A stretch of 64,000 nt of DNA, from IMG/VR virus record IMGVR_UViG_3300035670_000132, positions 14,513-78,512 of that record; one strand, given 5' to 3'. This DNA comes from a virus. Position numbers and translations under genes: made by a program. Position 1 is the stretch's first letter. Every line of letters starts with the position of its first letter. Shown here in pieces: positions 1-64,000 of the stretch. The notes beneath the pieces were generated by a model. The model made no database searches. It was given only the letters and a program-made list of their open reading frames with translations, and had not been told where the DNA came from.

Positions 1-1021
1 TTCTCAGAAAACTATCGTCGATTCTGCTCAAGAAGTTTCTGATGAAATCAAATCATTGACATATCGTGTCACTATGCAGACACAAAACAAGTATGTGACA
101 CCAGTTATTGATCTTGAGCGAGTTCAGACGATTGTATATAATAATGCAATCAACTATGACACATTTATCTCTCTTGATGGATTAGTTTCTTACTCATCAG
201 GAGCAAACACAGTAACTGGCATTGGAACAAGTTTTACTCTTGATCTAGATACTGGCGAATATGTCAAGTTCGGAGATCAGTATCGTCAGATTCTATCAAT
301 ATCAAGCAATACTTCGTTGACTGTCGCGACTGATTTCTCTGTCAGTGCGTCAAATGTTGCATACACATCTTCAAACGAAGAGAATCCAGACGGACCTTAT
401 GCGTCTTTGTCAAGATATATCACTCGCAGAGTCGAACTAGCTGACGGATTCGAAGCTAATGATCTAGTAGTTTACTTGGATGTCAATCGCCCAGTCGGAA
501 CTGACGTCAAAGTCTATTACAAGATTTTGAATGACTCTGATAGCGACTCATTTGATACTAAGTTCTATCAAGAAATGAGCCTTGAAGGTCAGCGCTTATT
601 CAACGATGATCAGTCTAAGTATGTTGCAGAGAAATATGTTGTTCCTAACAGCATCAAGTCTGGTGGATCAAATCTACTATCTGGAACAGTAGATATAAGC
701 ACTTCATCAACTACTGTGACTGGAACATCAACACGATTCTTAGAACAACTTAGAATTGGAGACACAATTCGTGTAGATTCAGATTATCGTGTCGTTACTG
801 CAATCGCAAATAATACTTCATTGACTGTTGATAGTAATTTCAGCGTAACTGCATTAGACAAAGAAATGTATAAGATGCTTTATAACGCAATTGTTTATAC
901 TACTCCAGATAATCGCACATATTCGGGATATAAATACTTTGCGATAAAGATCGTGTTCTTGTCTAACAATGTCGCTGTAGCGCCGAGAGTGAAAAAATTG
1001 AAAGCATTAGCATTGACATAA
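1..1021 (+). CDS. C-terminal part of a large virion structural/baseplate protein (5'-truncated; DUF4815-like position)
   Basis: Frame is open from position 2. C-terminus (SRYITRRVEL...DLVVYLDVNRP...VKVYYK...FAIKIVF...PRVKKLKALAL) resembles large T4-like cyanophage virion proteins. Contains two copies of a small VTG..T.F...L..G domain. Confidence 0.65.
   Translation, partial: SQKTIVDSAQEVSDEIKSLTYRVTMQTQNKYVTPVIDLERVQTIVYNNAINYDTFISLDGLVSYSSGANTVTGIGTSFTLDLDTGEYVKFGDQYRQILSISSNTSLTVATDFSVSASNVAYTSSNEENPDGPYASLSRYITRRVELADGFEANDLVVYLDVNRPVGTDVKVYYKILNDSDSDSFDTKFYQEMSLEGQRLFNDDQSKYVAEKYVVPNSIKSGGSNLLSGTVDISTSSTTVTGTSTRFLEQLRIGDTIRVDSDYRVVTAIANNTSLTVDSNFSVTALDKEMYKMLYNAIVYTTPDNRTYSGYKYFAIKIVFLSNNVAVAPRVKKLKALALT
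929..936 (+). promoter_or_regulatory. T4-type late promoter TATAAATA (gene-internal, upstream of fibre genes)
   Basis: Exact gp55 consensus ~90 nt upstream of the next ORF. Confidence 0.45.
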
Positions 1022-1025
1022 TACC

Positions 1026-1265
1026 ATGCAATCAAGCGTAAAACTGAAAGAAACAAAGAACGGTTTATCTGAAAGAGATTTACACTCAAAAGCGATACTG
1101 AACACGGATAACTCATTACTACTCAAGTATAAAATTCAGAAAAGTAGACAGATGAACGTTCAGAACAATTCGACTGAAATTGAGAGATTGAAATCAGAAT
1201 TTCAATCTCTCAAGAGTGAAATCTCAGAAATCAAACAAATTCTTCTTCAAATAGCAAGCAGGTAA
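1026..1265 (+). CDS. Small coiled-coil hypothetical protein
   Basis: 79 aa; RDLHSKAILNTD motif plus heptad C-terminus, typical of the ORF following the large virion protein in T4-like phages. Confidence 0.7.
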   Translation: MQSSVKLKETKNGLSERDLHSKAILNTDNSLLLKYKIQKSRQMNVQNNSTEIERLKSEFQSLKSEISEIKQILLQIASR

Positions 1266-1271
1266 TAAGAT

Positions 1272-4200
1272 ATGCCAATAATCAATGTTGAGTTAGCTAA
1301 CACATTCAATGAATTCAGAAACACGACTAACGAAGTTATCGCTAGAGTAAATGAATTTGAGAGTGGTATTGCTACGGCAAATATCAATCTTGTCAATGCA
1401 AATACAATAGTAACTAATTCTGAGGTTCAGTCTAACGTATTCACGACAAGTGCAAATACTCACAGCTTGACACTTAGCACAAACAGTGGCGCAAATACTG
1501 GTTATATTTTGATTGAGCCAAACGACAATGGAAACGTTGTCATCGTCGCTAACGGAACTGGCACACTTTTTCTTGACACATCAACAGTGGTTGCTGGTAA
1601 TAGTTTTATTGACACAACTATTACGTCCAACGGCGCACAAGATTTGATTCTCAGCACAAACACTGGAACAAACTCTGGATTCATTCGCATCTACGATGGC
1701 GCAAATGGAAACGTTGTAGTAGAAACTAACGGCACTGGTGATGTTCAACTTAACGCAGATACTCTTCGTGTTGGTGATCTAAACTCAGATTCTACTATCA
1801 CAACTAGAGGAACTGGCGACATCATCATCAATACGAACGAGGGCACAAACACGGGCTTTATTCGCATTTACGATGGCGCTGATGGTCACATCGTTGTAGA
1901 GCCAAACGGCGCTGGCGATGTTCAACTCAACACAGACACTGTTCGTATTGGATCTAGCAACGAAGACGTTGTTGTCACGACAAATGGAACTGGCGACATC
2001 ACAATTAGCACTAACTCTGGCACTAACTCTGGCACAATAAAAATATTCGACGGCGCTAGTGGAAACGTTGACGTAACACCAAGTGGCACAGGTAGAACTA
2101 ATGTAAAGAATGTCACTACTGGAAATCAAATTATTTCTACTGTAGCGACTGGTACTGCACCACTATCAGTAGCGTCTACAACTGCTGTAACTAATCTAAA
2201 TGCAGACAAGGTTGACGGCATAGATGTTGCAACACCATCAGCCGCGGGCGGTATTGTCTATGCGTCAACAACTTCAGAGCTTTCAACTTCTGCTGCCGGC
2301 ACTGCTGGTCAAGCAGTCATTTCTGGCGGAACTGGTGCGCCAACATTCCAATCAGTTTCAACGTCGAACGGAGCGTCAACGATTGTAGCCCGTGACGCTA
2401 ACGGTGACTTTGCATCACGTAACGTTACTGTATCAAATATTATTGGTAATGGTTCTCAACTAACAAACTTGAATGGATCCAACGTAGCTACTGGAACTGT
2501 TCCTAACGCAAGAACAACTGGCTCATCAGCTAACGGAGCATCAACTCTAGTTCTTCGCGACGCAACTGGATCATTTGCTGCAAACGTTGTCACAGCGACT
2601 ACTATTGCAGCAAGCGGATTTGCTGGAGACGGTTCTGGTCTAAACAGCCTAAACGCATCAAATATTGCAACGGGAACAATAGAAAACGCAAGAACAACTG
2701 CTTCATCATCTAACGGAGCATCAACTCTAGTTCTTCGCGATGCAACTGGATCATTCGCAGCAAACGTTGTCAGTGCAGTAAACGTAGCTACTACAGAATT
2801 TTCTACTACTAATGCTAGCGCGACAAATCTAACTGCAACTAATATTTCTGGCAGTGGCGCAGGCATAACTAGCTTGAATGGTTCTAATATAGCATCAGGA
2901 ACAGTGCCTAATGCTAGAACAACAGGAACAGCAGCTAACAGCCCAAACACTCTAGTTCTAAGAGATTCTGCTGGATCTTTCAACGCAAACGTTGGAGCAT
3001 TCAATACAGTCACTGGTGTCGGCTCTGGTCTAACGTCACTGAATGCTTCAAGCATAACTTTGGGCACAATATCTAACGATAAAACTACAGCCAACACTCA
3101 GAATAGTTCTAGTACAATAGTTCTTCGTGATGCTAATGGATCATTTTCTGCAAATGTCATAACATCACAATACATTTCTGCTAACGGAGCATTACTGAGT
3201 TCTCTAAATGCGTCTAGTATTAGTTTTGGCACGATACCAAATAGTGTAACAACGGCTAACACATCAAACAGTGCGAGTACAATTGTTCTTCGCGATACTA
3301 ACGGCGACTTTAGTTCACGAAGAATTACATCAACTATTGCATCGGGAACATCTCCATTCGTAGTAACTTCTACAACTGTTGTTTCAAACTTGAACGCAGA
3401 CAAGGTTGACGGAAAAGATGTAGGCACACTCTCTGCTGCTGGTGGTATTGTTTACGCATCATCTACTACAGCACTAGCTGGAACTGCTGCTGGCACTGCT
3501 GGACAAGCTGTTATCTCTGGTGGAGCAAGTGCGCCAACATTTCAGACAGTCGCTTCTGCAAACGGAGCTTCAACAATTGTAGCTCGTGATGCAGATGGAT
3601 CATTCAGTGCTAATGTCGGCAATTTCAATGTTCTAACTATTTCAACTGGCATTGGTGGAGATGGATCAGCATTATCAAATTTGAATGCTGCTAACATTAC
3701 AATAGGAACAATCGAAAATACAAGAACGACTGGGTCTTCATCTAACGGAGCTAACACTCTAGTTCTTCGCGATGCTAACGGCGATTTTAGCGCACGTAGA
3801 ATTACATCAACGATTGCATCGGGAACATCTCCATTTGTCGTCACATCAACTACTGCTGTCACTAATTTGAACGCAGACTTACTTGATGGTCAACACGGTT
3901 CTTACTATCTAGACTGGACAAACACAACAAACAAACCAGATCCTGTCGTTACTGTAACTTTGACTGGAGATGTTGCTGGAAGTGCAAACACTACACTAAC
4001 CGATCTTGCGAGTGGTACAATTTCTATTGCGACGACAATTCAAGCGAATTCTGTGGCTTTGGGAACAGACACAACTGGAAATTACGTTGCAACAATTGCA
4101 GCAGCAACGCCAGGATCACAATCTGGAACTTCTGGTCTAACAATATCAGCAACTGCCGGTGAAGGCACAGCAGCAACTATTGCTCACGCAGACACATCAA

Positions 4201-5936
4201 CTCAAGCGTCAGTAAACAACTCTAATGGAAATGTAATTCAAGACATCACACTTGATGGATTTGGTCACATTACTGCACTGGCTTCTGTTGACTTAGATGC
4301 AAGATATCTTTCATTCAAGACGTTAGAGGTCACAGACACAAATTCTGGCTATGCTTGGTCAAGCACAGGAAACGTTGTTGCTGATCTATATGATGACAGA
4401 CTTGTATTTGTTGATGGCGATGGCGTTGATATCTCAGCAGACGCGACTAATGATGCTATATTGATTCAGCACACAGATACATCAACGTTGAATGGTGCAC
4501 AAGGCGGAAATGGTATTGCATCTATCACTGTTGACGGATTTGGTCACGTAACTGCCGTAGGAACAGCAACTTACTTGACTTCACAGTCTAGTGACTTTGG
4601 CAACGTCAAGATCGACAATACAGACACAGAATACACTTGGGTAACAACTGACGGAACTACAGTAGCAGCAGATACAACGGCTGACACGTTGACACTTGTA
4701 GCACGACAAACGGCTAGCGTTTCTGGTATTGTTCTTCACGCGAACACGGGTCTAGACGCAATCGCAATCTCACACGGAGACACTTCTACTCTCACTGGCG
4801 CACAAGGCAGTGCTGGAATAGCATCTATCACCGTTGATGGAATGGGTCACGTAACAGCAGTTTCAACTGCAACTTACTTGACTTCACAGTCAACAGATTT
4901 CAAGACAATCACTGTCTCGGACACAAACTCAGGCTACACTTGGACAACTACTGGAAGCGCAGTCGCAGAAGCTGTCGGAGACACTCTAACTATCGTTGAC
5001 GGCGACGGTGTTGACATTTCTGTTGATGCAACTAATGACGCAATTCTGATTCAGCATACAGACACATCAACTCAAGCGTCAGTAAACAACTCCAACGGAA
5101 CTGTAATTCAAGACATCACGCTTGATGGATTTGGTCACATTACTGCACTGGCTTCTGTTGATTTAGACGCAAGATATCTCGCATTCAGAACAATTGAAGT
5201 CACAGACACCAACTCAGGCTACACTTGGTCAACCACTGGAAGTGCAGTCGCTGATGCATATAATGATACACTAAAGATAGTTGATGGCGACGGTGTTGAT
5301 ATCTCAGCAGACGCAACTAATGATTCAATTCTGATTCAGCACACTGACACATCGACACTAAACGGAGCGCAAGGCGGAAATGGTATTGCATCTATCACTG
5401 TTGACGGTTTTGGCCATGTAACAGCAGTTTCAACTGCAACTTATTTGACTGCTGAAGCAGACACACTACAGACTGTCACTAATAGAGGCGCAACGACAAC
5501 TGTTGCAGTTTCAATCACAAATACAACTGCATCAACTTCAACAACAACTGGTGCGCTAAAAGTTTCTGGTGGTGTTGGTATTGCTGGCGCACTAAACGCG
5601 ACAAGCAAATCATTCATTATTGATCACCCAACTAAGCCAGGAATGCTATTGCGTTACGGCTCTCTAGAAGGTCCAGAGCTAGGTGTCTACGTTCGCGGCA
5701 AGTCTAAAGAATCTGTGATCAAACTTCCTGACTACTGGACTGATCTAGTTCACGAAGACACAATCACTGTGAATCTAACTCCAATCGGATCGCATCAGCA
5801 ACTCTTCGTATCTAAAGTAGAAAACAACGAAGTTCATGTTGAGTCTTCTTCTAGAGAAATGAACTATTTTTACACAATCTTTGCTGAGCGTAAAGACGTT
5901 GACAAGCTAGTTGTAGAGTATGCTGACGAGGAGTGA
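1272..5936 (+). CDS. Long tail fibre protein, repeat-rich, with C-terminal chaperone-like domain
   Basis: 1554 aa, T/S/G/A/N-rich. N-terminal NTFNEFR..TN attachment motif; repeated LNADxxDG, STLVLRDAxGxF and ITVDGFGHVTA units; C-terminal KSFIIDHP...LEGPE...LPDYW domain. Confidence 0.85.
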   Translation: MPIINVELANTFNEFRNTTNEVIARVNEFESGIATANINLVNANTIVTNSEVQSNVFTTSANTHSLTLSTNSGANTGYILIEPNDNGNVVIVANGTGTLFLDTSTVVAGNSFIDTTITSNGAQDLILSTNTGTNSGFIRIYDGANGNVVVETNGTGDVQLNADTLRVGDLNSDSTITTRGTGDIIINTNEGTNTGFIRIYDGADGHIVVEPNGAGDVQLNTDTVRIGSSNEDVVVTTNGTGDITISTNSGTNSGTIKIFDGASGNVDVTPSGTGRTNVKNVTTGNQIISTVATGTAPLSVASTTAVTNLNADKVDGIDVATPSAAGGIVYASTTSELSTSAAGTAGQAVISGGTGAPTFQSVSTSNGASTIVARDANGDFASRNVTVSNIIGNGSQLTNLNGSNVATGTVPNARTTGSSANGASTLVLRDATGSFAANVVTATTIAASGFAGDGSGLNSLNASNIATGTIENARTTASSSNGASTLVLRDATGSFAANVVSAVNVATTEFSTTNASATNLTATNISGSGAGITSLNGSNIASGTVPNARTTGTAANSPNTLVLRDSAGSFNANVGAFNTVTGVGSGLTSLNASSITLGTISNDKTTANTQNSSSTIVLRDANGSFSANVITSQYISANGALLSSLNASSISFGTIPNSVTTANTSNSASTIVLRDTNGDFSSRRITSTIASGTSPFVVTSTTVVSNLNADKVDGKDVGTLSAAGGIVYASSTTALAGTAAGTAGQAVISGGASAPTFQTVASANGASTIVARDADGSFSANVGNFNVLTISTGIGGDGSALSNLNAANITIGTIENTRTTGSSSNGANTLVLRDANGDFSARRITSTIASGTSPFVVTSTTAVTNLNADLLDGQHGSYYLDWTNTTNKPDPVVTVTLTGDVAGSANTTLTDLASGTISIATTIQANSVALGTDTTGNYVATIAAATPGSQSGTSGLTISATAGEGTAATIAHADTSTQASVNNSNGNVIQDITLDGFGHITALASVDLDARYLSFKTLEVTDTNSGYAWSSTGNVVADLYDDRLVFVDGDGVDISADATNDAILIQHTDTSTLNGAQGGNGIASITVDGFGHVTAVGTATYLTSQSSDFGNVKIDNTDTEYTWVTTDGTTVAADTTADTLTLVARQTASVSGIVLHANTGLDAIAISHGDTSTLTGAQGSAGIASITVDGMGHVTAVSTATYLTSQSTDFKTITVSDTNSGYTWTTTGSAVAEAVGDTLTIVDGDGVDISVDATNDAILIQHTDTSTQASVNNSNGTVIQDITLDGFGHITALASVDLDARYLAFRTIEVTDTNSGYTWSTTGSAVADAYNDTLKIVDGDGVDISADATNDSILIQHTDTSTLNGAQGGNGIASITVDGFGHVTAVSTATYLTAEADTLQTVTNRGATTTVAVSITNTTASTSTTTGALKVSGGVGIAGALNATSKSFIIDHPTKPGMLLRYGSLEGPELGVYVRGKSKESVIKLPDYWTDLVHEDTITVNLTPIGSHQQLFVSKVENNEVHVESSSREMNYFYTIFAERKDVDKLVVEYADEE
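2505..2772 (+). repeat. Near-identical ~88-nt direct repeats (2505-2592 and 2685-2772) in the tail fibre
   Basis: aacgcaagaacaactg...taacggagcatcaactctagttcttcgcga.gcaactggatcatt.gc.gcaaacgttgtca occurs twice, 180 nt apart. Confidence 0.85.
4191..5450 (+). repeat. Internal duplication in the tail fibre (~4191-4580 vs ~5061-5450)
   Basis: gacacatcaactcaagcgtcagtaaacaactc...ggatttggtcacattactgcactggcttctgttga... repeated 870 nt apart with mostly synonymous differences. Confidence 0.85.
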
Positions 5937-5939
5937 TGC

Positions 5940-7313
5940 GTGGGCATTTATTATAATGCCCAGTCGATAACGTCTGGGCTTGTATCTTACGTAGACGCTG
6001 GTAACTACAAGTCCGTAAAGGGAAGACGAAATATTCTTAGCTGGGATAGCTGGACTGCTGGCTCTGGCAGCGCAACTGGCTACTCTCAGAACGGACTGAC
6101 TACTGAAAATACTAGACTAGCAGACACTGATCCTTGGGGTCAAACAAATATAGTTTGGGGATCTTATCCTTCAGGCGACGGAAATGCTGACGGTGGATGG
6201 AACACTTCTTGGTATAACATTGACCGAGAAAAACTCTACAGATTCAGCGTCTGGGTAAGAAGAACTAGCAGTACAACTGGCGGCACTTTTTATCTTGGCA
6301 TGTATGATAACGTTGGCTCTGTCGTCATGAGCACTGGCTCAGTCAATACAAACGCATATTGGGACTGTAGAAACATCTCCTGGATGACTCAGAATCAATG
6401 GTATCTTGTCGTTGGTCATGTATATCCTCACACAACAACTTACACGGGAAGACATCCAGACACAGGCGTATATACTGTTGATGGCGGAAGATTCGGCGAT
6501 ATTGGCGGATGCAATATCGGCAGTGGAGATATAAAATGGAATCCAGCCGCAACTCAAACTATACATAGAACTTATCACTACTATTGCGGCGACAGCACTA
6601 GCAGATTGCAATTCTATCAACCTAGAATTGATTTGTGTGACGGAACTGAACCAACAATAGATGATCTTCTAGACAATATTGGATCTAAAGCACTTGATAT
6701 TGTCAGATCAAATAAACATTATCAATTTTATAATGCGCCTAAAGTCAACGCTAGCGGATACTTTGAATTTGATGGCTCTACTACATACGTCAACAGCATA
6801 TACGAAGACACTGATCTAGACGGAGATCCCATATTCACTGTAGACATGTGGATCAAAAGAACTGCATCGTTCAGTAGCGCTGGTTATTGGGGACTTGCAG
6901 GAGACGTTGCTCTTCAAGGAATAAATGGATATACACATCCAACAACCGCAAATAAAATATCCATTGATCTTTGGGGAACTGCAACTTTCCACACGAACGT
7001 TGACTATCCACTAAATCAATGGGTGCACGTTGTCTGGAGAAAAAAGTCATCTAATTTCAACGTGAATTCAGTCTCAATCTTTATCAATGGCGTAGAGTAT
7101 ACCGGCGCAGGTCTTACTGTAGTCAGAGGAAGTGATCACACGCCAAACTTGACGACATCGACAAAGGGAATAACTTTAGGCAGATTATCTCCTTCTTCAA
7201 ACAGCTACTATGCTCCAGGTCATGTAGCTAATGCAAAGTTCTATGCTCGATCTTTGTCAGATGTTGAGATTTTGCAAAACTTCAGCGCACAACGCGGCAG
7301 ATTTGGAGTCTAA
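5940..7313 (+). CDS. LamG/concanavalin A-like lectin domain virion protein (paralog 1)
   Basis: GLVSYVDAGNYKS N-terminus; NQWVHVV; FYARSLSDVEILQNFSAQRGRFGV C-terminus; GTG start. Confidence 0.8.
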   Translation: MGIYYNAQSITSGLVSYVDAGNYKSVKGRRNILSWDSWTAGSGSATGYSQNGLTTENTRLADTDPWGQTNIVWGSYPSGDGNADGGWNTSWYNIDREKLYRFSVWVRRTSSTTGGTFYLGMYDNVGSVVMSTGSVNTNAYWDCRNISWMTQNQWYLVVGHVYPHTTTYTGRHPDTGVYTVDGGRFGDIGGCNIGSGDIKWNPAATQTIHRTYHYYCGDSTSRLQFYQPRIDLCDGTEPTIDDLLDNIGSKALDIVRSNKHYQFYNAPKVNASGYFEFDGSTTYVNSIYEDTDLDGDPIFTVDMWIKRTASFSSAGYWGLAGDVALQGINGYTHPTTANKISIDLWGTATFHTNVDYPLNQWVHVVWRKKSSNFNVNSVSIFINGVEYTGAGLTVVRGSDHTPNLTTSTKGITLGRLSPSSNSYYAPGHVANAKFYARSLSDVEILQNFSAQRGRFGV

Positions 7314-7319
7314 CGCATC

Positions 7320-8501
7320 ATGAGTGTTCTCCATTCGCCAAGTCTAGTATTGAACGATCTCGTGTTGTATTATGACAAATACAACATTGCGAATTCTTGG
7401 ATAGGCAGACCAACGACGAATTTGTTGTCGTCAACGCTAGCGACATTCTCATCAACCTCTGGATGGTTTACAGGAGACGTTCCTGGTCCAGTTTACAGAA
7501 GAATTTTAGTTGGTCAAGGATATCGTGGCAGAAACGCAGTAATGATCCAAAAAGGAACAGCAGCGTCTGGTGGATATTTTCAAGTTGAGACTACATTTCC
7601 TGAAGCTGTAGTTGGCGGAACGACATACACTGCACAGATAAAGTATAAAAGACAAGACTCAAGCACAGCATTTTTGATAGGCGATTGGGGTGGTCCTGAT
7701 GGAAATAATGCCAATTGGACAACGATATACGATGGTCAACTTGACACAGAATGGAGACTTCGCGTTGTTCAAAGACTATACACAAACTCAGCGAGTGCTG
7801 GATTCACGTTTGGTGTAAACAGCACAACTGCTGGAAAATGGTTGATTTTCTCAGACTTTCAATTAGAAAATAGCACAGTCTCTTCTGCATTCACAGTCGG
7901 CACAAGAAGCAATACTCAATCAATTTTAGATTTGACACAAAACAATTTGATCACTTCTAATGCATTGACTTACGCTACGCCGAATACGTTCAGTTTTAGT
8001 GGATCAAGTTATCTAAGTGTTCCATTCAACGCGACAAAATTCAATTTCAATAGTGAACAGACAATCATTATTTGGATGAAAAACGAAGCGTCTGTTGCTG
8101 CTAGAAGAAATCCATACAATCAAGCGTATGGTGGCGGTGGAACTATAACTCACGAGAGCAATACCAACTTGAACTATTATTATGGAACAAATGGTGGAAA
8201 TAGCACACCATATACAAGTCATGGATCTCCGTTCAGCGTAGTGGATGGCGAAACTGCTATGGTTGCAATAACTAGAGATCCAGCGAACACAAAGTGGTAT
8301 AAGAACGGCGTTCTTTCTGGAACTCGTGCAAATCCTTACGGCGCATCTGTAGTTACTGGAACTAGTCCAATTCTAATAGGCACTGGATATACTACAGGAT
8401 TTATAGGTAACTTAGATTCAGTCATGGTGTATACTCGCGCACTCAGTGAATATGAGATTCTTCAAACTTTTGCTGCAACAAGAAACAGATACGGGCTATA
8501 A
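7320..8501 (+). CDS. LamG/ConA-like lectin domain virion protein (paralog 2)
   Basis: LVLYYDKYN..SW.GRPTTN; VYTRALSEYEILQTFAATRNRYGL. Confidence 0.8.
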   Translation: MSVLHSPSLVLNDLVLYYDKYNIANSWIGRPTTNLLSSTLATFSSTSGWFTGDVPGPVYRRILVGQGYRGRNAVMIQKGTAASGGYFQVETTFPEAVVGGTTYTAQIKYKRQDSSTAFLIGDWGGPDGNNANWTTIYDGQLDTEWRLRVVQRLYTNSASAGFTFGVNSTTAGKWLIFSDFQLENSTVSSAFTVGTRSNTQSILDLTQNNLITSNALTYATPNTFSFSGSSYLSVPFNATKFNFNSEQTIIIWMKNEASVAARRNPYNQAYGGGGTITHESNTNLNYYYGTNGGNSTPYTSHGSPFSVVDGETAMVAITRDPANTKWYKNGVLSGTRANPYGASVVTGTSPILIGTGYTTGFIGNLDSVMVYTRALSEYEILQTFAATRNRYGL

Positions 8502-8503
8502 CC

Positions 8504-9655: not shown

Positions 9656-9659
9656 TCAT

Positions 9660-11440: not shown

Positions 11441-11447
11441 CAAAAAA

Positions 11448-51319: not shown

Positions 51320-51344
51320 TCTGACTAATCCACTCAACTACCTC

Positions 51345-51372: not shown

Positions 51373-51397
51373 TACTCCTGTGATGAGCGAGGTACTG

Positions 51398-51535
51398 ATG
51401 AATCAAGACACGATCCCTGCTGATGAATGGAATGCCGCTTTCGACGACATTCCTGTCGAAGAGACTCAAGCGTACCAAGACTGGCTAGCTCGGTTTGAGT
51501 ACGAACACTTTTCATCCTGCGAATTTGACATCTGA
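51398..51535 (+). CDS. Small acidic early protein (45 aa, not in ORF track)
   Basis: GAGGT RBS; MNQDTIPADEWNAAFDDIPVEETQAYQDWLARFEYEHFSSCEFDI*. Confidence 0.65.
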   Translation: MNQDTIPADEWNAAFDDIPVEETQAYQDWLARFEYEHFSSCEFDI

Positions 51536-51545
51536 GAGGTTCACC

Positions 51546-51974: not shown

Positions 51975-51976
51975 TG

Positions 51977-52005
51977 TTGACATGTGACTGGTTCTAGATT
52001 AGAAT
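51977..52005 (+). promoter_or_regulatory. Sigma70-type early promoter
   Basis: TTGACA-N17-TAGAAT. Confidence 0.8.
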
Positions 52006-52028
52006 TAGTTCACTAACTCGGAGAACGT

Positions 52029-54260: not shown

Positions 54261-54319
54261 ATCGAAACTTTTTGATGTATACTGTATCCATTGATGAACA
54301 AAACTGAAAGGAAACTCAA

Positions 54320-55480: not shown

Positions 55481-55509
55481 ATAGTTTTCTCCTTGGCATC
55501 CGTGCCTTT

Positions 55510-55534
55510 AAGCCCTAGAAATAGGGCTTTTTTT
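55510..55534 (+). terminator. Rho-independent terminator
   Basis: aagcccta-gaaa-tagggctt followed by a T-run. Confidence 0.88.
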
Positions 55535-55574
55535 CATATATAATATATCACCAACAACATCATGGAGTGCATGA

Positions 55575-56414: not shown

Positions 56415-56432
56415 ATGAAAGAGGAATATATT

Positions 56433-56861
56433 ATGCAAAGTGAATTGCCAAAAACATTATCTCAAACTTTTGATAATATGGGAGCATCACATTATAACGG
56501 ATGGAATGATAGTATGTTAACGACATCGAGTTTGAATCAAGGCCTTTTAGGATCAATTACTCAAACTGCAACAATCAAACCAGTCAACTACAAATATCAT
56601 GAAGATGAAATTCTAGATGAGCTGAAGCGATATATTGACAGCACATATAGTCAACACTATTCAACTAACAAGTATCAAGCGACTGAGTTTATTATTGATG
56701 GCGGGCATGGCGAAGGCTTTTGCATCGGCAATATCATGAAGTATGCTCAGCGCTACGGAAAGAAAAACGGCAAGAATAAACAAGACTTGCTAAAGGTACT
56801 TCACTATGCTATAATCATGCTTCACATTCACAATGAATCTGAAAGGAAAATTACAAAATGA
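56433..56861 (+). CDS. DUF3310-like protein (nucleotide kinase/nucleotide-modification associated)
   Basis: YSQHY, GFCIGNIMKYAQRYGKKNG..KQDLLKVLHYA. Confidence 0.75.
   Translation: MQSELPKTLSQTFDNMGASHYNGWNDSMLTTSSLNQGLLGSITQTATIKPVNYKYHEDEILDELKRYIDSTYSQHYSTNKYQATEFIIDGGHGEGFCIGNIMKYAQRYGKKNGKNKQDLLKVLHYAIIMLHIHNESERKITK
56787..56815 (+). promoter_or_regulatory. Gene-internal sigma70-type promoter for gp45
   Basis: TTGCTA-N17-TATAAT with TGn. Confidence 0.55.
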
Positions 56862-57526
56862 AATTAAGTGAATCAACTCTGACTTACTTGAAGAACTTCT
56901 CATCAATCAATTCTGGCATTGTCATTCAGTCTGGCAATACTATTCGCACAATTTCAAAGCAGCAAAACATCCTTGCTAAAGCTGAAGTTGTCGAAACGTT
57001 TGACGACAAGATTGCAATCTATGACTTGAATCGATTTCTTGCTTTGTTGAGTTCTCTTCAATCTCCAGAAATTGACATTGTGCCTGATCAGAAGTGCATC
57101 AATGTTCTGTCTGGTCAAACCAAGGCTGTCTATCGCCTCTCCGATGAATCTCTCGTCGTGACTGCACCAGCAAAAGACTTGAAAGTCACTGGCGAAGTAA
57201 AGTTCTTACTAACGAAAGACACGATGAACCAGATTGCAAAGATGGCTGGTGTGCTTGGTCTTCCTAACGTATGCGTTCGCGGCGATCGGTCTAAAGTCAC
57301 TCTAAACGCGGTTGATGTCAAGAATCAAGACTCTGACATCTTCAGCATTGAAGTCGGCACTACAAAGTCTGAATTTGAAATGATCTTCTCTACGGAGAAT
57401 TTCAAGATGATTCCTGGTGACTACAACGTAGAGATTTCATCTAAAGGCATCTCTCACTTCAAGCACACGAAAGAGCCTATCGAATATTGGATCGCTATCG
57501 AATCTGGTTCGACTTTCACCGAGTAA
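56858..57526 (+). CDS. gp45: Sliding clamp gp45
   Basis: MKLSESTL..LKNFSSINSGI, AIYDLNRFL, ENFKMIPGDY.VEIS, YWIAIE. Confidence 0.95.
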   Translation: MKLSESTLTYLKNFSSINSGIVIQSGNTIRTISKQQNILAKAEVVETFDDKIAIYDLNRFLALLSSLQSPEIDIVPDQKCINVLSGQTKAVYRLSDESLVVTAPAKDLKVTGEVKFLLTKDTMNQIAKMAGVLGLPNVCVRGDRSKVTLNAVDVKNQDSDIFSIEVGTTKSEFEMIFSTENFKMIPGDYNVEISSKGISHFKHTKEPIEYWIAIESGSTFTE

Positions 57527-57551
57527 ATTGAAAAAGGAGCATTACTACATC

Positions 57552-57821
57552 ATGACGACAAATTCTGGAATTGTAATCCCATCATCTCCAGCAGACAGGC
57601 AAGCGATCAAGAATGCTCTCCAAGAAATCTCAAACTCGCTCACTCGCATCGAGGGTGAGCGAGACTTGATCAAAGATATCTTGCAGACAGTTCAAGACAA
57701 TCAGAACATTCCTAAGAAGTATGTTCGCAAGCTAGCCAAGATTTTTCATAAGCAAAACTACACTGAAGTTCAACAAGAACAAGAAGACATTGATTCATTG
57801 TACGAGACTGTTGCACAATAA
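57552..57821 (+). CDS. dsbA: Phage dsDNA-binding protein, DsbA-like
   Basis: LQEISNSLTRIEGERDLIKDI...RKLAKIFHKQN...E..SLYE. Confidence 0.7.
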   Translation: MTTNSGIVIPSSPADRQAIKNALQEISNSLTRIEGERDLIKDILQTVQDNQNIPKKYVRKLAKIFHKQNYTEVQQEQEDIDSLYETVAQ

Positions 57822-57839
57822 CACGATATCTGTTATAGT
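57811..57839 (+). promoter_or_regulatory. Sigma70-type promoter upstream of gp44
   Basis: TTGCAC-N17-TATAGT with TGn. Confidence 0.55.
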
Positions 57840-57887
57840 GCTATTGTGATGTTATCTGCTTTGCAGATTTTTATTATGGAGTAATCA

Positions 57888-58826
57888 ATGCTACAAGAAT
57901 TCCTCTGGGTAGAAAAGTATCGACCAAAAGCGGTGCAAGACACTATCCTTCCTGATGACTTGAAGCAAACGTTTCAGACGTTTGTCGATAACAAAGAAAT
58001 CCCTAATCTGATCTTGTCTGGCGGTCCTGGTGTTGGTAAGACTACCATCGCTAGGGCTATGCTAGAAGAGATCGACTGTTCATATATTGTCATCAACGGT
58101 TCTATGAACGGCAACATTGACACGCTGCGCAACGAAATCAAAAACTTTGCGTCAACTGTCTCATTCAAAGGCGGTAGAAAGTATGTCATCCTTGATGAAG
58201 CTGATTATCTCAATCCTCAATCTACGCAACCTGCGCTGCGTAATTTTATGGAAGAGTTTTCTGCTAATTGTGGTTTTATTCTTACTTGTAACTTTGTCAA
58301 CCGAATCATCGCTCCATTACATTCTCGATGTTCCGTCATACAGTTCAAGATAAGCAAGAATGATAAGCCGAAGCTAGCTTCGGCGTTCTTCAAGCGAGTC
58401 GTGGGCATTCTCAAGACTGAAAATGTAGATGCTGATTCTAAAGTAGTTGCAGAATTTGTAACTAAACACTTTCCTGACTGGCGCAGAGTGCTGAATGAAC
58501 TTCAGCGCTACTCTGCGACTGGCAAGATTGACGTCGGCATTCTGTCTCGCATCGGTGACGTATCAATCAAATCGTTGATTGATTCCTTGAGTGGTAAAGA
58601 TTTCTCCACAATGCGCAAGTGGGTTGCTGAAAATCTCGATTCAGATCCAACTGCAATCTTCAGGTCATTGTTCGATAACATGATAGAATTCGTTCAGCCG
58701 CAGTCAGTTCCAGAGCTAGTTGTGCTGCTTGGTGAGTATCAATACAAGTCTGCTTTCGTTGCTGATCAAGAGATCAATCTAGTTGCTTTCTTGACTGAAG
58801 TAATGGCATCTTGCGAATTCAAGTGA
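57888..58826 (+). CDS. gp44: Clamp loader large subunit gp44
   Basis: LWVEKYRP, GGPGVGKTT, ILDEADYL, PLHSRC, FPDWRR. Confidence 0.96.
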   Translation: MLQEFLWVEKYRPKAVQDTILPDDLKQTFQTFVDNKEIPNLILSGGPGVGKTTIARAMLEEIDCSYIVINGSMNGNIDTLRNEIKNFASTVSFKGGRKYVILDEADYLNPQSTQPALRNFMEEFSANCGFILTCNFVNRIIAPLHSRCSVIQFKISKNDKPKLASAFFKRVVGILKTENVDADSKVVAEFVTKHFPDWRRVLNELQRYSATGKIDVGILSRIGDVSIKSLIDSLSGKDFSTMRKWVAENLDSDPTAIFRSLFDNMIEFVQPQSVPELVVLLGEYQYKSAFVADQEINLVAFLTEVMASCEFK

Positions 58827-58845
58827 TTTTAGGAGAAATATTGAT

Positions 58846-59316
58846 ATGATTTCATTAGATCAGAAAAAAGTAATGATGGGCAATCTCGGTGAGCGCATTG
58901 TTTCCGATGTGCTTCGTGAACAAGGATATGATGTTCAATTGTCATACGATCCATTCGACAACAAAAAAGATTTCACTGTAAATGGCGCTTCAGTAGAAGT
59001 AAAGACACAAGTTCCATTTTATTCAAGAAATTCATTCTCTGTGAATATAACTCAGCGAAAAAAATTAAGCACTGTCGATTTTATCGTGTTCATTGCTGTA
59101 CCGTCACAAGCGTTGACTAAAGTGACAAAAACGAATTATGACGGTAAAATTTATGCAGCTAAATCAAGTGAATTGCTGGTAAAAAACTACACTACTCGCG
59201 ACGGCCGACAAATGATCTTAATTCCGATTAATCAAGAGGCAATGCTGCATTGCCATACTATTACTGATATCAATACGTTAAATCATCTAAGAAATTTAAC
59301 TTCCAGTAAGGCATGA
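58846..59316 (+). CDS. PD-(D/E)XK-fold nuclease-like protein inserted between gp44 and gp62
   Basis: GNLGE.IV...KDFTV...VEVKTQ motif; AT-rich with several TTAA. Confidence 0.6.
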   Translation: MISLDQKKVMMGNLGERIVSDVLREQGYDVQLSYDPFDNKKDFTVNGASVEVKTQVPFYSRNSFSVNITQRKKLSTVDFIVFIAVPSQALTKVTKTNYDGKIYAAKSSELLVKNYTTRDGRQMILIPINQEAMLHCHTITDINTLNHLRNLTSSKA

Positions 59317-59732
59317 CTCCGTTCGATCACATCAAAGCGATTACTGAGACTAAGACAAACACAGTCTTAGGAACAGACAACGATGAATTGGCTCAAAAGT
59401 CTTATGAGCCGTTCGTCGTCAATCGCGGCCTCTCACTCTTCATTGATACTATTCTTCATGCGAACGAGATGAATCGTTTGAATCATCTCGACAAAGTTCC
59501 TCAATTCTCTTATTTGCTAAATAGCATCAGACCTAGAAAGCGATATGCAAAATGGGTGAAGAAGTCGTCAATGGACAAAGAAAAACTCATTGCGACATGC
59601 TACAACGTAAGTCTCAGCAAAGCAAAAGAGTATGCGAAGATACTAACTTCTGACCAAGTTGAGACTATGGCACAACTATTACAAAAAAATGAAGTGAGTA
59701 TCAAGGAGAAATCAAATGGAAGTAAGCATTGA
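59313..59732 (+). CDS. gp62: Clamp loader small subunit gp62
   Basis: PFDHIKAI, YEPFVVNRGLS...ANEMN, YLLNSIRPRKRYAKW. Confidence 0.92.
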   Translation: MTPFDHIKAITETKTNTVLGTDNDELAQKSYEPFVVNRGLSLFIDTILHANEMNRLNHLDKVPQFSYLLNSIRPRKRYAKWVKKSSMDKEKLIATCYNVSLSKAKEYAKILTSDQVETMAQLLQKNEVSIKEKSNGSKH

Positions 59733-60123
59733 AAGCCTATTGGAGGTCAGACTAAAACAAGAAGATGATTTTCTAAAAGTTAGAGAGACACTAACTCGCA
59801 TCGGTGTAGCATCACGCAAAGAGAAAAAACTCTATCAGTCTTGCCACATTCTTCATAAGCGAGGCAAGTATTATATCGTCCACTTCAAAGAGTTGTTCGC
59901 ACTTGACGGAAAGCCAACAGACTTTGACGACAGCGACAAGGGACGAAGAAACTCAATCGCTAATCTATTAGCAGAGTGGGGACTGATTGAGATTGTCGTG
60001 CCAGCTCAAGTGATTGAGCCAAAAGCGCCGATGTCTCAGATTAAGATCATTTCGTATTCTGACAAAAACAACTGGGAACTAATCACCAAATACAATATTG
60101 GTGTAAAGAAGAAACGAGATTGA
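59716..60123 (+). CDS. regA: Translational repressor RegA
   Basis: DDFLKVRETLTRIGVAS, LYQSCHILHKRGKYYIVHFKELFALDG, KYNIG. Confidence 0.96.
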   Translation: MEVSIESLLEVRLKQEDDFLKVRETLTRIGVASRKEKKLYQSCHILHKRGKYYIVHFKELFALDGKPTDFDDSDKGRRNSIANLLAEWGLIEIVVPAQVIEPKAPMSQIKIISYSDKNNWELITKYNIGVKKKRD

Positions 60124-60126
60124 TAC

Positions 60127-60155
60127 TTGACATCGTGATAGAAATTTGATACAAT
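60127..60155 (+). promoter_or_regulatory. Sigma70-type early promoter
   Basis: TTGACA-N17-TACAAT with TGn. Confidence 0.8.
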
Positions 60156-60211
60156 TTTGATCGAGACAAGTTCTCAAGCACATATTATTTTTAACTGAAA
60201 GGACTATAAAC

Positions 60212-60439
60212 ATGGCATTCGTAACATCATCAAAGACTCAAAAAGAAATTCTTCTATCGTATCTTCGAGGAACATCGCGTGTTCTGAGTGCATCTCAAGC
60301 ACTTTCTATGTTTGGAGTTAAAAATCTTAGCGCAAGAATGAGCGAACTACGCCGATCTGGATATACTGTTCGCTTATCAAAAAATAAGAGCGGAAAAACT
60401 ACATATTCCATTTTTGATCAAGCAGACGTCAAAAAGTAA
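60212..60439 (+). CDS. Small winged helix-turn-helix protein
   Basis: QKEILLSYL...LSASQA..FGVKNLSARMSELRRSGY. Confidence 0.75.
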   Translation: MAFVTSSKTQKEILLSYLRGTSRVLSASQALSMFGVKNLSARMSELRRSGYTVRLSKNKSGKTTYSIFDQADVKK

Positions 60440-60447
60440 TATAAATA
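60440..60447 (+). promoter_or_regulatory. Late promoter TATAAATA ahead of the hsp20 leader
   Basis: Exact consensus. Confidence 0.75.
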
Positions 60448-60451
60448 CACA

Positions 60452-60680
60452 TATCTCACTCGGGATGGGAACGTAAGATTAGCCGGCACAACGATATGGT
60501 GCCCCTGTACTTCGGTAAGCAGGACTAATTCATCCCCTACCTTGGGAACGTTTGTCGCTACGATAAAAGGCGTCAACTGGCGGCTGCTGCCAGGATTGTA
60601 TTCAACGCCAAGGATATGATCAAGTGAGCACCTTACGCCTTTTGGGTAAGGAATCAACATCACTCGCTTAATAAAGGAGA
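60452..60680 (+). ncRNA. Candidate structured cis-regulatory RNA (tandem two-unit leader) upstream of hsp20
   Basis: GC-richer 230-nt noncoding stretch with nested stems gggatg/catccc, ggcac/gtgcc, cctg/cagg, ccttgg/ccaagg, ctggc/gccag, ccttac/gtaagg; repeated TGGGAACGT and ACGATA. Confidence 0.6.
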
Positions 60681-60687
60681 AACTATT

Positions 60688-61164
60688 ATGACACATCTAT
60701 CTGTATTCGGTCCAGGATTCAAGGAATTTGACAAGTATTTTGTCGGCTTTGAGGACCAATTCAATCGCCTATCTAAGATGCATGACGATCTAACGAAGGG
60801 CATTCCTAACTATCCTCCATACAATATCAAGAAGACTGGCGAAAACACATACGCCATCGAGCTTGCTGTTGCTGGCTTTGGTAAGCAGGACATCGAGATT
60901 GAACTAGAAGATGGCAAGCTAGTCGTGAAGGGTTCAACATCAGACAACACTGACGAGAACTATCTATTCAAAGGCATCGCAAATCGCGCATTCACTCGCG
61001 CATTCGCATTGAATGATCAAATCGAAGTCAAAGACGCAGAAATGATCAATGGCATGCTCAAAATTTTCTTAGAGCGTATCATTCCAGAGCATAAGAAGCC
61101 AAAGAAGATTGCAGTCAAAGAGAAAGCTGAGAAGACTTCTTCTAAGCAATATTTGACTGAATAA
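60688..61164 (+). CDS. hsp20: Small heat shock protein Hsp20 (IbpA-like)
   Basis: NYPPYNI, IELAVAGF, GIANRAFTRAF, NGMLKI.LERIIPEHKKPKKI. Confidence 0.95.
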   Translation: MTHLSVFGPGFKEFDKYFVGFEDQFNRLSKMHDDLTKGIPNYPPYNIKKTGENTYAIELAVAGFGKQDIEIELEDGKLVVKGSTSDNTDENYLFKGIANRAFTRAFALNDQIEVKDAEMINGMLKIFLERIIPEHKKPKKIAVKEKAEKTSSKQYLTE

Positions 61165-61166
61165 TC

Positions 61167-61280
61167 ATGTTAGCATTCATCAAAGACGTATTCAGCGCTT
61201 TACTTCATTACTCAAGAGAGTATAATGATTATAAAGATGAGCAACTGAAAAAAATTGGTTATATCGAGCGTTGGTACTGA
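61167..61280 (+). CDS. Small hypothetical protein (37 aa, not in ORF track)
   Basis: MLAFIKDVFSALLHYSREYNDYKDEQLKKIGYIERWY*; fills the gap between hsp20 and the terminator. Confidence 0.45.
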   Translation: MLAFIKDVFSALLHYSREYNDYKDEQLKKIGYIERWY

Positions 61281-61287
61281 AGCATTC

Positions 61288-61308
61288 TGGGGGCGCAAGC
61301 CCCCATTT
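61288..61308 (+). terminator. Terminator-like hairpin
   Basis: tgggggc-gcaa-gccccca followed by ttt. Confidence 0.7.
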
Positions 61309-61326
61309 AGTTTATGAAGGAACATC

Positions 61327-61698
61327 ATGAATCCATTTATTGATCAAGCTACATTTATGACATCATGTGATCAAACTATCGGATTGAACAATCCATCTCA
61401 GTTTGCACTGTATAACAAACTCATTGAAGAAGAAGTTGATGAGCTATTTGCTGCGACTCGCGACAATGATCGAGTTGAGCAATTAGACGCATTGATTGAC
61501 ATTCTCGTCGTCACGATTGGAGCGCTTCACAGTATGGGCGTAGATCCACAAGCCGCGTGGAGAGAAGTCATGTCTACTAACTTCGCGAAGATTGATCCAG
61601 TCACGGGAAAAGTTCGCAAGCGTGAAGATGGTAAAGTTCTAAAGCCAGAGGGCTGGAAAGCACCAAACCTAAAACAATTCATTTTTGGAGCAGTATAA
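61327..61698 (+). CDS. MazG-like / PRA-PH NTP pyrophosphohydrolase
   Basis: LIEEEVDEL, EQLDALIDI, NFAK, REDGKVLKP.GW. Confidence 0.85.
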   Translation: MNPFIDQATFMTSCDQTIGLNNPSQFALYNKLIEEEVDELFAATRDNDRVEQLDALIDILVVTIGALHSMGVDPQAAWREVMSTNFAKIDPVTGKVRKREDGKVLKPEGWKAPNLKQFIFGAV

Positions 61699-61702
61699 TA
61701 TC

Positions 61703-62002
61703 ATGGCAAAAATCCAACTACTAAGAACTCTCGTCGGAGAAGACATCGTTGCTGAAATTCTCAGCGAAGACGGTTCTACACTGACAGTGAAGAATCCATG
61801 TCAAATCGCACTCGTGATGATGGAGAACGGTCAGCCCAATCTAAACATTCAGCGCATGTTGACTTTCTCTCCAGCGACTGAGGTTGCGATGAACAAGTCA
61901 TTGCTTCTATACATCACAGAGGTTGACCCGAAGATTGAAGCCAAGTATAATGAGATATTTGGCAATATCATCGTAGCTCAACCTAGGATCTTCACTGGAT
62001 GA
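61703..62002 (+). CDS. Conserved hypothetical protein upstream of gp43
   Basis: LLRTLVGEDIVAE...VKNP; GGAG RBS; synteny. Confidence 0.72.
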   Translation: MAKIQLLRTLVGEDIVAEILSEDGSTLTVKNPCQIALVMMENGQPNLNIQRMLTFSPATEVAMNKSLLLYITEVDPKIEAKYNEIFGNIIVAQPRIFTG

Positions 62003-64000
62003 AATTTTACACGCACTTTGCAAGAAAAGGTAAGTTTGTACTTGAACGCGGCTACAATAACGGCAAGCGTTTTCAGCGCCGTGTTGAGTACAAGCCTACG
62101 CTATATGTTCCGTCTAAGGACAATCGCGAAACTGAATTTCGCACTCTACTAGGAGAAGCTGTTCATGCTATGAATTTCGATAGCATGAATGAAGCAGCCG
62201 ACTTCATGAGCAACTATGAAGATGTTGACAACTTCAAGATTTACGGCTCTACAAACTTCCCATACATTTACATTCATGGGCAATATCCAGATGGTGTCGA
62301 GTATGACACCGACTTGTTGAAGATTATCAACATTGACATCGAGGTCGGCTCTGAGAACGGCTTTCCTGAGCCATCAAAAGCTACAGAACCAATCACTGCG
62401 ATCACAATGAAAGTCGATGGACATTATCATGTCATTGGCTGCGGCGAGTATGTAAACACTCGCAAAGATGTAACATATTCAAAGTGCGACGATGAGCGTC
62501 AGCTAATCATGAAGTTTCTCGAATTGTGGGAACTTTTTGATGCTGACATCATCACTGGTTGGAACGTGCAGTTCTTCGATATTCCATATCTACACAATCG
62601 CATCGTTAGACTGTTGGGTGAGAATACAGTAACACGATTGTCTCCTTGGAAAATGATCACTTCGCGAACCACAAAAGTGAACAATCGTGAGCAGACTGTT
62701 TATGAATTGCTTGGCATCGTTGTTCTAGACTATCTTGAGCTATACAAGAAGTTTACGTATTCGCAACAAGAAAACTATCGTCTAGACACAATCGCTAACG
62801 TAGAACTTGGCGAGAACAAGCTAGACTACTCAGAGTTCGAAAACTTGCACCAATTGTATCGACTAGACTATCAAAAATTCATTGACTATAACATCAAAGA
62901 CGTTGATCTAGTTGACAGACTTGAAGATAAGATGAAACTAATTGAAATGGTGTTAGCACTCGCATATGACGCTAAAGTGAATTTGAATGACGTTTTCACT
63001 CAAGTTCGGATGTGGGACACGCTAACTCACAATCATCTGATGGGCAGAAACATCGTTGTTCCTCAGAAAAAGCACTCATCGAAAGACGATGCATACGAAG
63101 GTGCGTATGTCAAAGAGCCTAAGCCGGGCATGTATCATTACGTTGCATCATTCGATTTGAATAGTCTGTATCCACATTTGATCATGCAATACAACATCAG
63201 CCCAGATACTATTGTCGATGCATTGCATACGCATGTGACAATTGATTCTTTGCTGAACAGAGAATTTGTGAACGACACCGAATATTGCATGGCAGCTAAC
63301 GGACACTACTTTCGTAAAGACAAGCAAGGCTTTCTGCCAGAAATGATGCAGACAATGTATGATGATCGATCAAAGTATAAGAAGCTAATGCTTGAATGGC
63401 AGAAGAAGAAAGAAGTCGCAAAGACTGCTGATGAAAAGTATGAGTGTGAAAAGAAGATTTCAAAATACAAGAATCTTCAGATGGCTAAGAAAGTTCAGCT
63501 AAACTCTGCTTATGGTGCGCTAGGCAATCAATACTTCCGCTTCTATGACTTGCGACAAGCTGAAGCGATCACTTTGTCTGGGCAGCTATCCATTCGTTGG
63601 ATTGAAGCTAAGATGAACGCATACATGAACAAAGTTCTGAAGACAGACTCTGTTGATTACATCATCGCATCAGACACAGATTCAATCTATCTGCATCTCG
63701 GTCCATTGGTCGAAAAAGTCTACGGCACTGATGTAGACAAGATGAATCAAGTTCAAATCATCGACTTTATGGATAAAGTCTGCGACGGCAAGATCCAAGA
63801 AGTCATCGATAATTCATATCAAGACTTAGCAGATTACATGAACGCATATGCGCAGAAGATGCAAATGAAGCGTGAAGTCTTAGCCGACAAGGGTATCTGG
63901 ACAGCAAAGAAGCGATACATCCTGAACGTCTATGACAGCGAAGGTGTTCGCTACGCTGAGCCTAAACTCAAAGTGATGGGTCTAGAAATCGTAAAGTCTT
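61999..64000 (+). CDS. gp43: Family B DNA polymerase gp43 (3'-truncated; not in ORF track)
   Basis: MKFYT start at 61999; exonuclease IDIEV and ITGWNV..FDIPY; motif A SFDLNSLYP; motif B KKVQLNSAYG; motif C ASDTDS; KKRY. Confidence 0.96.
   Translation, partial: MKFYTHFARKGKFVLERGYNNGKRFQRRVEYKPTLYVPSKDNRETEFRTLLGEAVHAMNFDSMNEAADFMSNYEDVDNFKIYGSTNFPYIYIHGQYPDGVEYDTDLLKIINIDIEVGSENGFPEPSKATEPITAITMKVDGHYHVIGCGEYVNTRKDVTYSKCDDERQLIMKFLELWELFDADIITGWNVQFFDIPYLHNRIVRLLGENTVTRLSPWKMITSRTTKVNNREQTVYELLGIVVLDYLELYKKFTYSQQENYRLDTIANVELGENKLDYSEFENLHQLYRLDYQKFIDYNIKDVDLVDRLEDKMKLIEMVLALAYDAKVNLNDVFTQVRMWDTLTHNHLMGRNIVVPQKKHSSKDDAYEGAYVKEPKPGMYHYVASFDLNSLYPHLIMQYNISPDTIVDALHTHVTIDSLLNREFVNDTEYCMAANGHYFRKDKQGFLPEMMQTMYDDRSKYKKLMLEWQKKKEVAKTADEKYECEKKISKYKNLQMAKKVQLNSAYGALGNQYFRFYDLRQAEAITLSGQLSIRWIEAKMNAYMNKVLKTDSVDYIIASDTDSIYLHLGPLVEKVYGTDVDKMNQVQIIDFMDKVCDGKIQEVIDNSYQDLADYMNAYAQKMQMKREVLADKGIWTAKKRYILNVYDSEGVRYAEPKLKVMGLEIVKS

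Follow-up and report, generated by a model that had tools for sequence, protein, structure and literature searches.

Lineage-layered depletion of restriction-type palindromes in a T4-like phage contig, with unpurged islands

Record IMGVR_UViG_3300035670_000132 of the IMG/VR database is a 78,512-base metagenome assembly derived from a T4-like myophage, and bases 14,513-78,512 of it (64,000 nucleotides, hereafter the window, whose own coordinates are used throughout) were analyzed for the distribution of short palindromes. Across most of its genes, referred to as the backbone, the word TTAA is nearly absent, together with GTAC, GGCC and a series of 6-bp palindromes, whereas a few short islands hold TTAA at the frequency expected by chance. 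This pattern is probably the outcome of long-lasting selection against Type II-type palindromes, layered by phage lineage and interrupted by recombinant segments from which TTAA has not been purged.

Results

TTAA is depleted from the backbone and retained in islands

The window contains 98 TTAA sites, 70 of which fall within about 7.5 kb. An earlier note, made by eye from the same DNA, had described TTAA as near-absent from resident genes and clustered elsewhere, and both observations hold. Only two sites (1750 and 9191) occur in 1-14,899 and three in 19.4-23.8 kb, compared with 42 in 14,900-18,445, 14 in 34,460-36,559, four in 37,309-37,606, five in 50,685-51,110 and five in 59,065-59,296. 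The segments concerned are as follows.

14900-18445 (+): island A, C-terminal two thirds of a tail-fibre gene (S74 chaperone domain) and an 885-amino acid SBBP beta-propeller gene at 15756-18413.
34460-36559 (+): island B1, body of an 831-amino acid virion-protein gene at 34090-36585, the middle gene of a conserved trio.
37251-37698 (+): island B2, two small genes of the prohead-core region at 37251-37460 and 37420-37698; 5 TTAA against 4.3 expected.
50685-51110 (+): island C, 206-amino acid gene at 50699-51319; 4 TTAA against 4.0 expected.
58846-59316 (+): island D, 156-amino acid gene with a predicted PD-(D/E)XK nuclease fold in the gap between gp44 and gp62; 5 TTAA against 3.9 expected.

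Codon usage was controlled by shuffling synonymous codons within each gene, which leaves the protein and the per-gene codon usage unchanged. Under this null, the 68 backbone genes of the contig contain 40 TTAA where 301 are expected, giving an observed/expected ratio (O/E) of 0.13 (z -21), and the seven island genes contain 67 where 63 are expected (O/E 1.06). For genes 1272-14321 alone the count is 2 against 45.6. The deficit therefore survives the codon-usage correction that the earlier note had proposed as a check, with an O/E far from 1. Low-GC backbone genes are purged as well, which shows that AT-richness is not the cause.

The deficit is visible in the choice between synonymous codons, as the earlier note had recognized for codons ahead of AA. 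The proportion NTT/(NTT+NTC) is 0.06 before AA, 0.28-0.36 before AG, AC or AT and 0.60 elsewhere; in the islands it is 0.58 before AA. Likewise, TTA accounts for 2.8% of leucine codons before A compared with 12.9% before other bases. The most over-represented 4-mer of the backbone is TCAA/TTGA (O/E 1.46), and ATCAA, GATCAA and CATCAA are also in excess, all of them products of the switch from NTT|AA to NTC|AA.

A two-state hidden Markov model (HMM) was run on the 1,415 codon pairs able to spell TTAA, here called opportunities. It returned islands at 14,900-18,445 (41 of 72 opportunities realized), 34,460-37,606 (18 of 52) and 50,685-51,110 (5 of 6), with one more at the start of the contig. 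Realization ranged from 35 to 83% within islands and from 2 to 5% outside. The large backbone blocks gave 7/266 (18446-34459), 7/290 (37699-50684) and 12/242 (51111-64000), five of the last twelve lying in island D.

Most depleted palindromes contain C or G

TTAA, GGCC and GTAC are the three 4-bp palindromes with the lowest O/E, GTAC occurring 58 times in backbone genes against 195 expected (O/E 0.30) and GGCC 17 times against 93 (O/E 0.18). Seven 6-mers have no copy in the entire 78.5 kb, for which the backbone expectations are approximately 33 (CTGCAG), 28 (AGATCT), 21 (AAGCTT), 10 (ACGCGT), 9 (GAGCTC), 22 (AGTACT) and 12 (CTTAAG). Two others are scarce in the backbone, GTCGAC with 1 of 17 expected and CAGCTG with 5 of 30. 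In the 4-mer counts no equal depletion was found for non-palindromic words of the same base content, and the remaining low 4-mers are Shine-Dalgarno-like (AGGT, GAGG, AGGA), as expected within genes. A/T-only palindromes other than TTAA are near normal (AATT 0.82, ATAT 0.92, TATA 0.78). Avoidance thus extends broadly over Type IIP-type words, the majority of them with a C or G. The earlier note had overlooked the depletion of GTAC, GGCC and the 6-bp palindromes; of the words that it listed as common, CTAG, GATC, AATT and CGCG are so, and TCGA is mildly low (0.60).

The purged words are nested across related lineages

About 250 related IMG/VR loci, all of them metagenomic fragments, were gathered through the terminase, the major head protein, gp44 and the island genes. 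Roughly 120 relatives, scored on one shared set of orthologous core genes under an identical null, mostly gave TTAA O/E values between 0.5 and 1.2. Values as low as here were found only in L001 (0.17) and L002 (0.25), which are the two closest relatives (terminase 90% identical), and in the unrelated L099 (0.00). Further TTAA-poor sisters are G001 (24 kb), L177, L178 and L179, and the TTAA purge is confined to the small subclade of this phage, G001, L001, L002 and L177-L179. The other words have different ranges. The seven 6-mers are missing from nearly all loci with a terminase at least 75% identical and are present in more distant loci, GGCC is low in almost all related loci, and GTAC is low in this phage and in scattered lineages, not in the sister G001. 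Over more than 200 IMG/VR loci, avoidance therefore forms a nested pattern.

Other T4-like lineages have purged tetramers of their own: L099 has no TTAA (21 expected), L109 has a single GTAC (44 expected), and TTAA O/E is about 0.4 in L156 and L133. In this environmental clade it seems common for a lineage to have purged a particular 4-mer.

At conserved residues, 53% of 4-fold sites are identical between the window and G001, compared with 30% at saturation, which amounts to roughly one synonymous substitution per site. Both are purged despite this divergence, indicating that selection went on in both lines after their split. G001 also repeats, independently, the arrangement of purged backbone and unpurged segments: its TTAA sites are found in three places, a 5-kb stretch of non-homologous DNA, an insertion of ~890 bases within uvsW and a single variable gene. 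The uvsW insert (L174:488-1379, on the sister contig G001) contains a 234-amino acid open reading frame (ORF) with 29% GC, 3-4 TTAA and no Pfam match, and may be a mobile element of the intron or intein type.

Islands A and D carry independent signs of import

The earlier note had taken the TTAA-rich clusters for recent gene imports. Islands A and D bear this out through independent compositional or phylogenetic signs, which are moderate at 34.5-37.6 kb and lacking at 50.7-51.1 kb.

In island A, TTAA and GTAC both have an O/E of about 1. Gene 15756 has the lowest GC content at third codon positions (GC3) of the contig, 0.16, and TTA makes up 0.56 of its leucine codons in contexts that cannot form TTAA, compared with 0.31 in the C-terminal part of the fibre gene, 0.12 in the N-terminal part of the same gene and 0.13 in the backbone. 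Twelve IMG/VR loci match the fibre gene only from residues ~137-153 onward, or 324-458, and four of them also match the start of the next gene; all twelve have unrelated flanks, a TTAA O/E of about 1.0 and the 6-mers present. In relatives, the interval from the baseplate genes to gene 19403 spans only ~3 kb of unrelated sequence. Island A is thus well supported as an import, its mosaic junction lying within the fibre gene at around residue 150. No close relative of the 885-amino acid protein was found in IMG/VR, and the Joint Genome Institute (JGI) metagenomes gave one match at 26% identity. The island proteins are known from three contigs each, including an identical 614-amino acid fragment of the gene 15756 product (g15756) on a separate 9.1-kb contig. 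The nearest homologues of this SBBP/PQQ-type beta-propeller, at 26-33% identity, are secreted repeat proteins of Bacteroidota and Ignavibacteria type. Next after the beta-propeller gene, within 15756-19347, comes a gene for a papain-family (C1) peptidase; the two make an unusual combination in a receptor-binding module.

The product of island D has a PD-(D/E)XK motif: E16, D42, E51 and K53 are kept without exception among 50 homologues, and D38 almost without exception. Its AlphaFold model has a predicted local distance difference test score (pLDDT) of 94, and the top Foldseek matches are all PD-(D/E)XK enzymes (NhoI, Eco15I-N, DpnI, I-Ssp6803I and Hjc), with template modelling (TM) scores of 0.40-0.47. 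Motif and model together place the protein in the PD-(D/E)XK superfamily, with a restriction-endonuclease-like fold, as a predicted nuclease. A single-sequence scan with the nuclease returned no match, and its homologues surfaced only through the flanking gp44. The slot between gp44 and gp62 holds an insert of 390-1160 bases in 48 of 75 relatives, 27 of which encode a homologue only 26-56% identical to the island D protein, next to gp44 proteins that are 74-82% identical. In the TTAA-poor sisters L177-L179, gp44 directly abuts gp62, and the best homologue (56%) occupies the same slot in the TTAA-normal L176. Island D is well supported as an insertion, and its homologues, some 250 representative sequences, have the look of a mobile nuclease family specific to this slot.

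Islands B1 and B2 are moderately supported imports

Gene 34090, the bearer of island B1, holds 14 TTAA against 15.2 expected and only 3 GTAC against 9.2 expected. TTA makes up 0.40 of its leucine codons in non-TTAA contexts, compared with 0.11-0.13 in the backbone and in the neighbouring genes (p 1e-5). The sister carries a different 881-amino acid gene at this place, which is also TTAA-neutral, and the homologues of gene 34090, all at most 58% identical, are on GTAC-normal contigs. In island B2, 4 of 9 TTAA opportunities are realized compared with 0 of 20 in the counterpart of the sister. The adjacent gene 37705-38166 is 83% identical to that of the TTAA-normal L022 and 70% to that of the sister, and this closer relationship to L022 suggests an allele replacement for B2. 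For both islands the case for import is moderate. Island C is not supported as an import: its gene occupies the same locus in the sister, and the numbers are small. Its protein (P0053) matched nothing in Pfam or PHROG, and Atlas gave only a weak lead, to GIY_YIG_2.

Taken together, the islands contain 2 copies of the 6-mers against 14.4 expected and 2 GGCC against 6. They still lack these words, which points to donors within the same wide clade. The islands could not be told from the backbone by their mean log-likelihood under its codon usage (z -1.0 to +2.2); GC3, and the use of TTA where no TTAA can arise, were better discriminators.

Residual TTAA in the backbone is not over-dispersed, one Poisson rate being sufficient to fit it (p 0.34). 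The residence clock that the earlier note suggested from TTAA density can be read in two states only. A graded clock was accordingly rejected, the backbone fitting a single rate and the islands having an O/E of about 1.

Gene content of the contig

The contig is 43% complete by CheckV, has 41% GC and carries nearly every gene on the plus strand. Family matches comprise tail fibre, sheath, major head protein, UvsY, UvsW, gp46/47, peptide deformylase, dCMP deaminase, a TAGT-family glycosyltransferase, CobT/CobS-like proteins, gp45, gp44, gp62, RegA, Hsp20, a MazG-like protein and DNA polymerase. By major head protein, the closest cultured phages infect Stenotrophomonas (70%), OM43 (66%), Pelagibacter (64%) and cyanobacteria (63%). 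At the DNA level no GenBank phage is close, megablast queries of 15 kb and 5 kb from the window having given no match. The purged backbone consists of the following blocks.

1-14899 (+): baseplate end, 1554-amino acid protein, LamG-like paralogues and N-terminal third of the tail-fibre gene 14366-15742.
18446-34459 (+): C1 peptidase, neck genes, terminase, sheath, tube, portal and part of the variable late module.
37699-50684 (+): prohead core, major head protein, UvsY, UvsW, gp47/46, peptide deformylase and dCMP deaminase; by Pfam also a small partner protein, a class I methyltransferase and the TAGT glycosyltransferase.
51111-64000 (+), except island D: CobT/CobS-like block, gp45, gp44, gp62, RegA, Hsp20, MazG-like protein and DNA polymerase.

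The CobT/CobS-like block at 51380-55480 has atypical codon usage, with a GC3 of 0.54-0.59 compared with 0.37 elsewhere. It contains 7 GTAC against 11 expected, 5 GGCC against 12 and 3 TTAA against 13, an excess that is not significant. Being mostly TTAA-purged and common to the sister, it may be an older, incompletely purged import and a candidate intermediate state. The sole minus-strand ORF, at 60418-60696 (-), has by a wide margin the worst codon-usage fit of the contig (z -4.4) and no family match, and is probably not a real gene.

Discussion

Selection by host restriction and the points that weigh against it

Virulent phages commonly avoid orthodox Type II sites, and nested, lineage-specific loss of palindromes is a known product of Type II restriction by hosts (PMC6286503). 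The selective agent would be host restriction enzymes of MseI, RsaI, HaeIII and PstI type, among others. Sites would have been removed by synonymous changes, from NTT|AA to NTC|AA and from TTA|A to other leucine codons. The layers would comprise GGCC and the seven 6-mers clade-wide, TTAA in the subclade and GTAC mainly in this phage. Segments recombined from TTAA-unpurged relatives would keep TTAA at the neutral rate and so appear as islands, the imports being the fibre/beta-propeller cassette, the free-standing PD-(D/E)XK gene and probably alleles at 34.5-37.7 kb. These imports are presumed recent, on an uncalibrated scale.

The long-term, restriction-type selection envisaged in the earlier note fits a deficit that is codon-corrected, lineage-specific and kept up over about one synonymous substitution per site. 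Several points weigh against this account. The GTDB contigs searched for a host yielded only mis-binned phage contigs in metagenome-assembled genomes (MAGs) of Aquiluna, Luteolibacter, Bacteroides and Pirellulales, and neither a host nor a TTAA-specific enzyme was identified. The ~70 TTAA of the islands leave the phage cuttable, so that selection would have to act per site or in part of the hosts. The contig is a metagenome assembly in which 57% of the genome is unseen. Gene 34090 has an ordinary GC3 (0.29) and sits at the centre of a widely conserved trio, and since none of its homologues exceeds 58% identity no donor can be named. The only known homologue of the island C gene, 66% identical, lies at the same place in the sister contig. 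Finally, no gene is in an intermediate state, which leaves nothing to calibrate a clock.

Alternative explanations

The phage lineage could itself encode a TTAA-cutting nuclease in the unseen part of its genome and be immune through absence of the site. The low completeness of the contig leaves room for such a gene, but we regard this as improbable. Such an enzyme would cut the phage's own DNA at the ~70 island sites and at 28 others, the O/E of 0.13 rather than 0 marks a purge short of complete, and ten other palindromes are purged too. Moreover, no pair resembling a restriction-modification system was found in the 78.5-kb contig or the 24-kb sister, and the sole nuclease found (P0052) sits inside a TTAA-rich island.

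A second possibility, put forward in the earlier note, is that cytosine hypermodification shields C-containing sites, so that only A/T-only sites such as TTAA need to be removed by mutation. The contig does encode a TAGT-family glycosyltransferase (PF20691, E 1.4e-42) at 49742-50695, in the cluster at 48.6-50.7 kb that the note had singled out, and MseI cleaves T4 DNA fully substituted with glucosylated hydroxymethylcytosine (PMC7653180), making TTAA-specific enzymes a real threat to C-modified phages. However, palindromes containing C or G are purged as strongly as TTAA, and the other A/T-only palindromes are near normal, so the rationale of shielding falls. No Tet_JBP (PF12851) or thymidylate-synthase-like hydroxymethylase (PF00303) match was found in the 43%-complete contig, the PF12851 control matching nowhere, and the methyltransferase at 48999-49790 gives weak matches to general class I models (Methyltransf_11/31) only, with no match to a DNA C5-cytosine methyltransferase. 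In the sister, a 200-amino acid HNH_3 endonuclease gene (L174:8486-9088) stands in its place, which marks the methyltransferase as a swappable part of a module made up of partner protein, methyltransferase and TAGT enzyme. We therefore rate hypermodification as the reason for the pattern somewhat lower still than a nuclease of the phage's own; in this lineage C-containing sites are purged despite the TAGT cluster.

A context-specific mutation bias, for example T to C within TTAA, could deplete the word without selection, the islands then being merely younger DNA. The excess of TCAA/TTGA, one transition away from TTAA, is what such a bias would leave, but synonymous escape under selection would give the same excess. 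Mutation bias would also need a separate origin for TTAA, GTAC, GGCC and the seven 6-mers, all of them restriction-type palindromes in nested lineages, and is accordingly very unlikely. Just as unlikely are assembly chimeras with reads of co-occurring TTAA-normal relatives: although the record is a metagenome assembly with its islands in hypervariable slots, those relatives are at most ~80% identical in protein, making long shared k-mers improbable, the island proteins recur on separate contigs as described above, and the sister contig shows the same pattern independently.

Implications and comparison with known systems

Selection against restriction words, layered by lineage, sets the contig apart as a natural example, of unusual clarity, of how restriction pressure acts on a phage genome by word and by lineage. 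Profiles of missing words can also reveal modules swapped into metagenomic phage contigs that have no assigned host, receptor-binding and mobile nuclease genes among them. The islands differ in profile, island A being normal for both TTAA and GTAC and island B1 TTAA-normal and GTAC-purged. We tentatively propose, as a possibility rather short of an even chance, that each mosaic segment carries a multi-word "restriction fingerprint" of its last long-term lineage, and hence of the enzyme repertoire of that lineage's hosts. In this clade the fingerprints would be nested, GGCC and the seven 6-mers forming the oldest layer, with TTAA purged in the subclade and GTAC in this phage. If true, donor lineages and the order of imports could be worked out from such fingerprints for uncultured phages, with no need of host data.

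The persistence of foreign signatures recalls amelioration, in which, as Lawrence and Ochman are said to have described in 1997, foreign segments keep the signature of their donor until recipient pressures erase it. Here the signature consists of selected missing words rather than drifting GC content or codon usage, and purged and unpurged states are the only ones seen.

T4-like phages exchange the distal parts of their tail fibres as modules. Island A resembles such exchanges in that a resident N-terminal attachment part is joined, within the gene, to a distal part which, like the next gene, also occurs in otherwise unrelated phages; it differs in that the junction is shown by a restriction-word boundary and that the downstream gene encodes an SBBP beta-propeller. 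The seg and mob genes are free-standing genes for homing-type endonucleases located between conserved T4 genes. Like these and the PD-(D/E)XK homing enzyme I-Ssp6803I (PDB 2ost), island D is a small gene with a predicted nuclease fold in a presence/absence slot between genes that normally abut, whereas its protein falls outside the seg and mob families by sequence and its likeness in fold is modest (TM ~0.45).

Overall, the case is one of ordinary restriction-site avoidance, a clean example with no new mechanism. It agrees with the restriction-site avoidance survey of Rusinov et al. (2018, PMC6286503) in the under-representation of Type II-type palindromes, the silent nature of the changes and the non-temperate type of phage. 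It differs in that avoidance is nested across a clade and broken by unpurged islands, which the survey does not treat.

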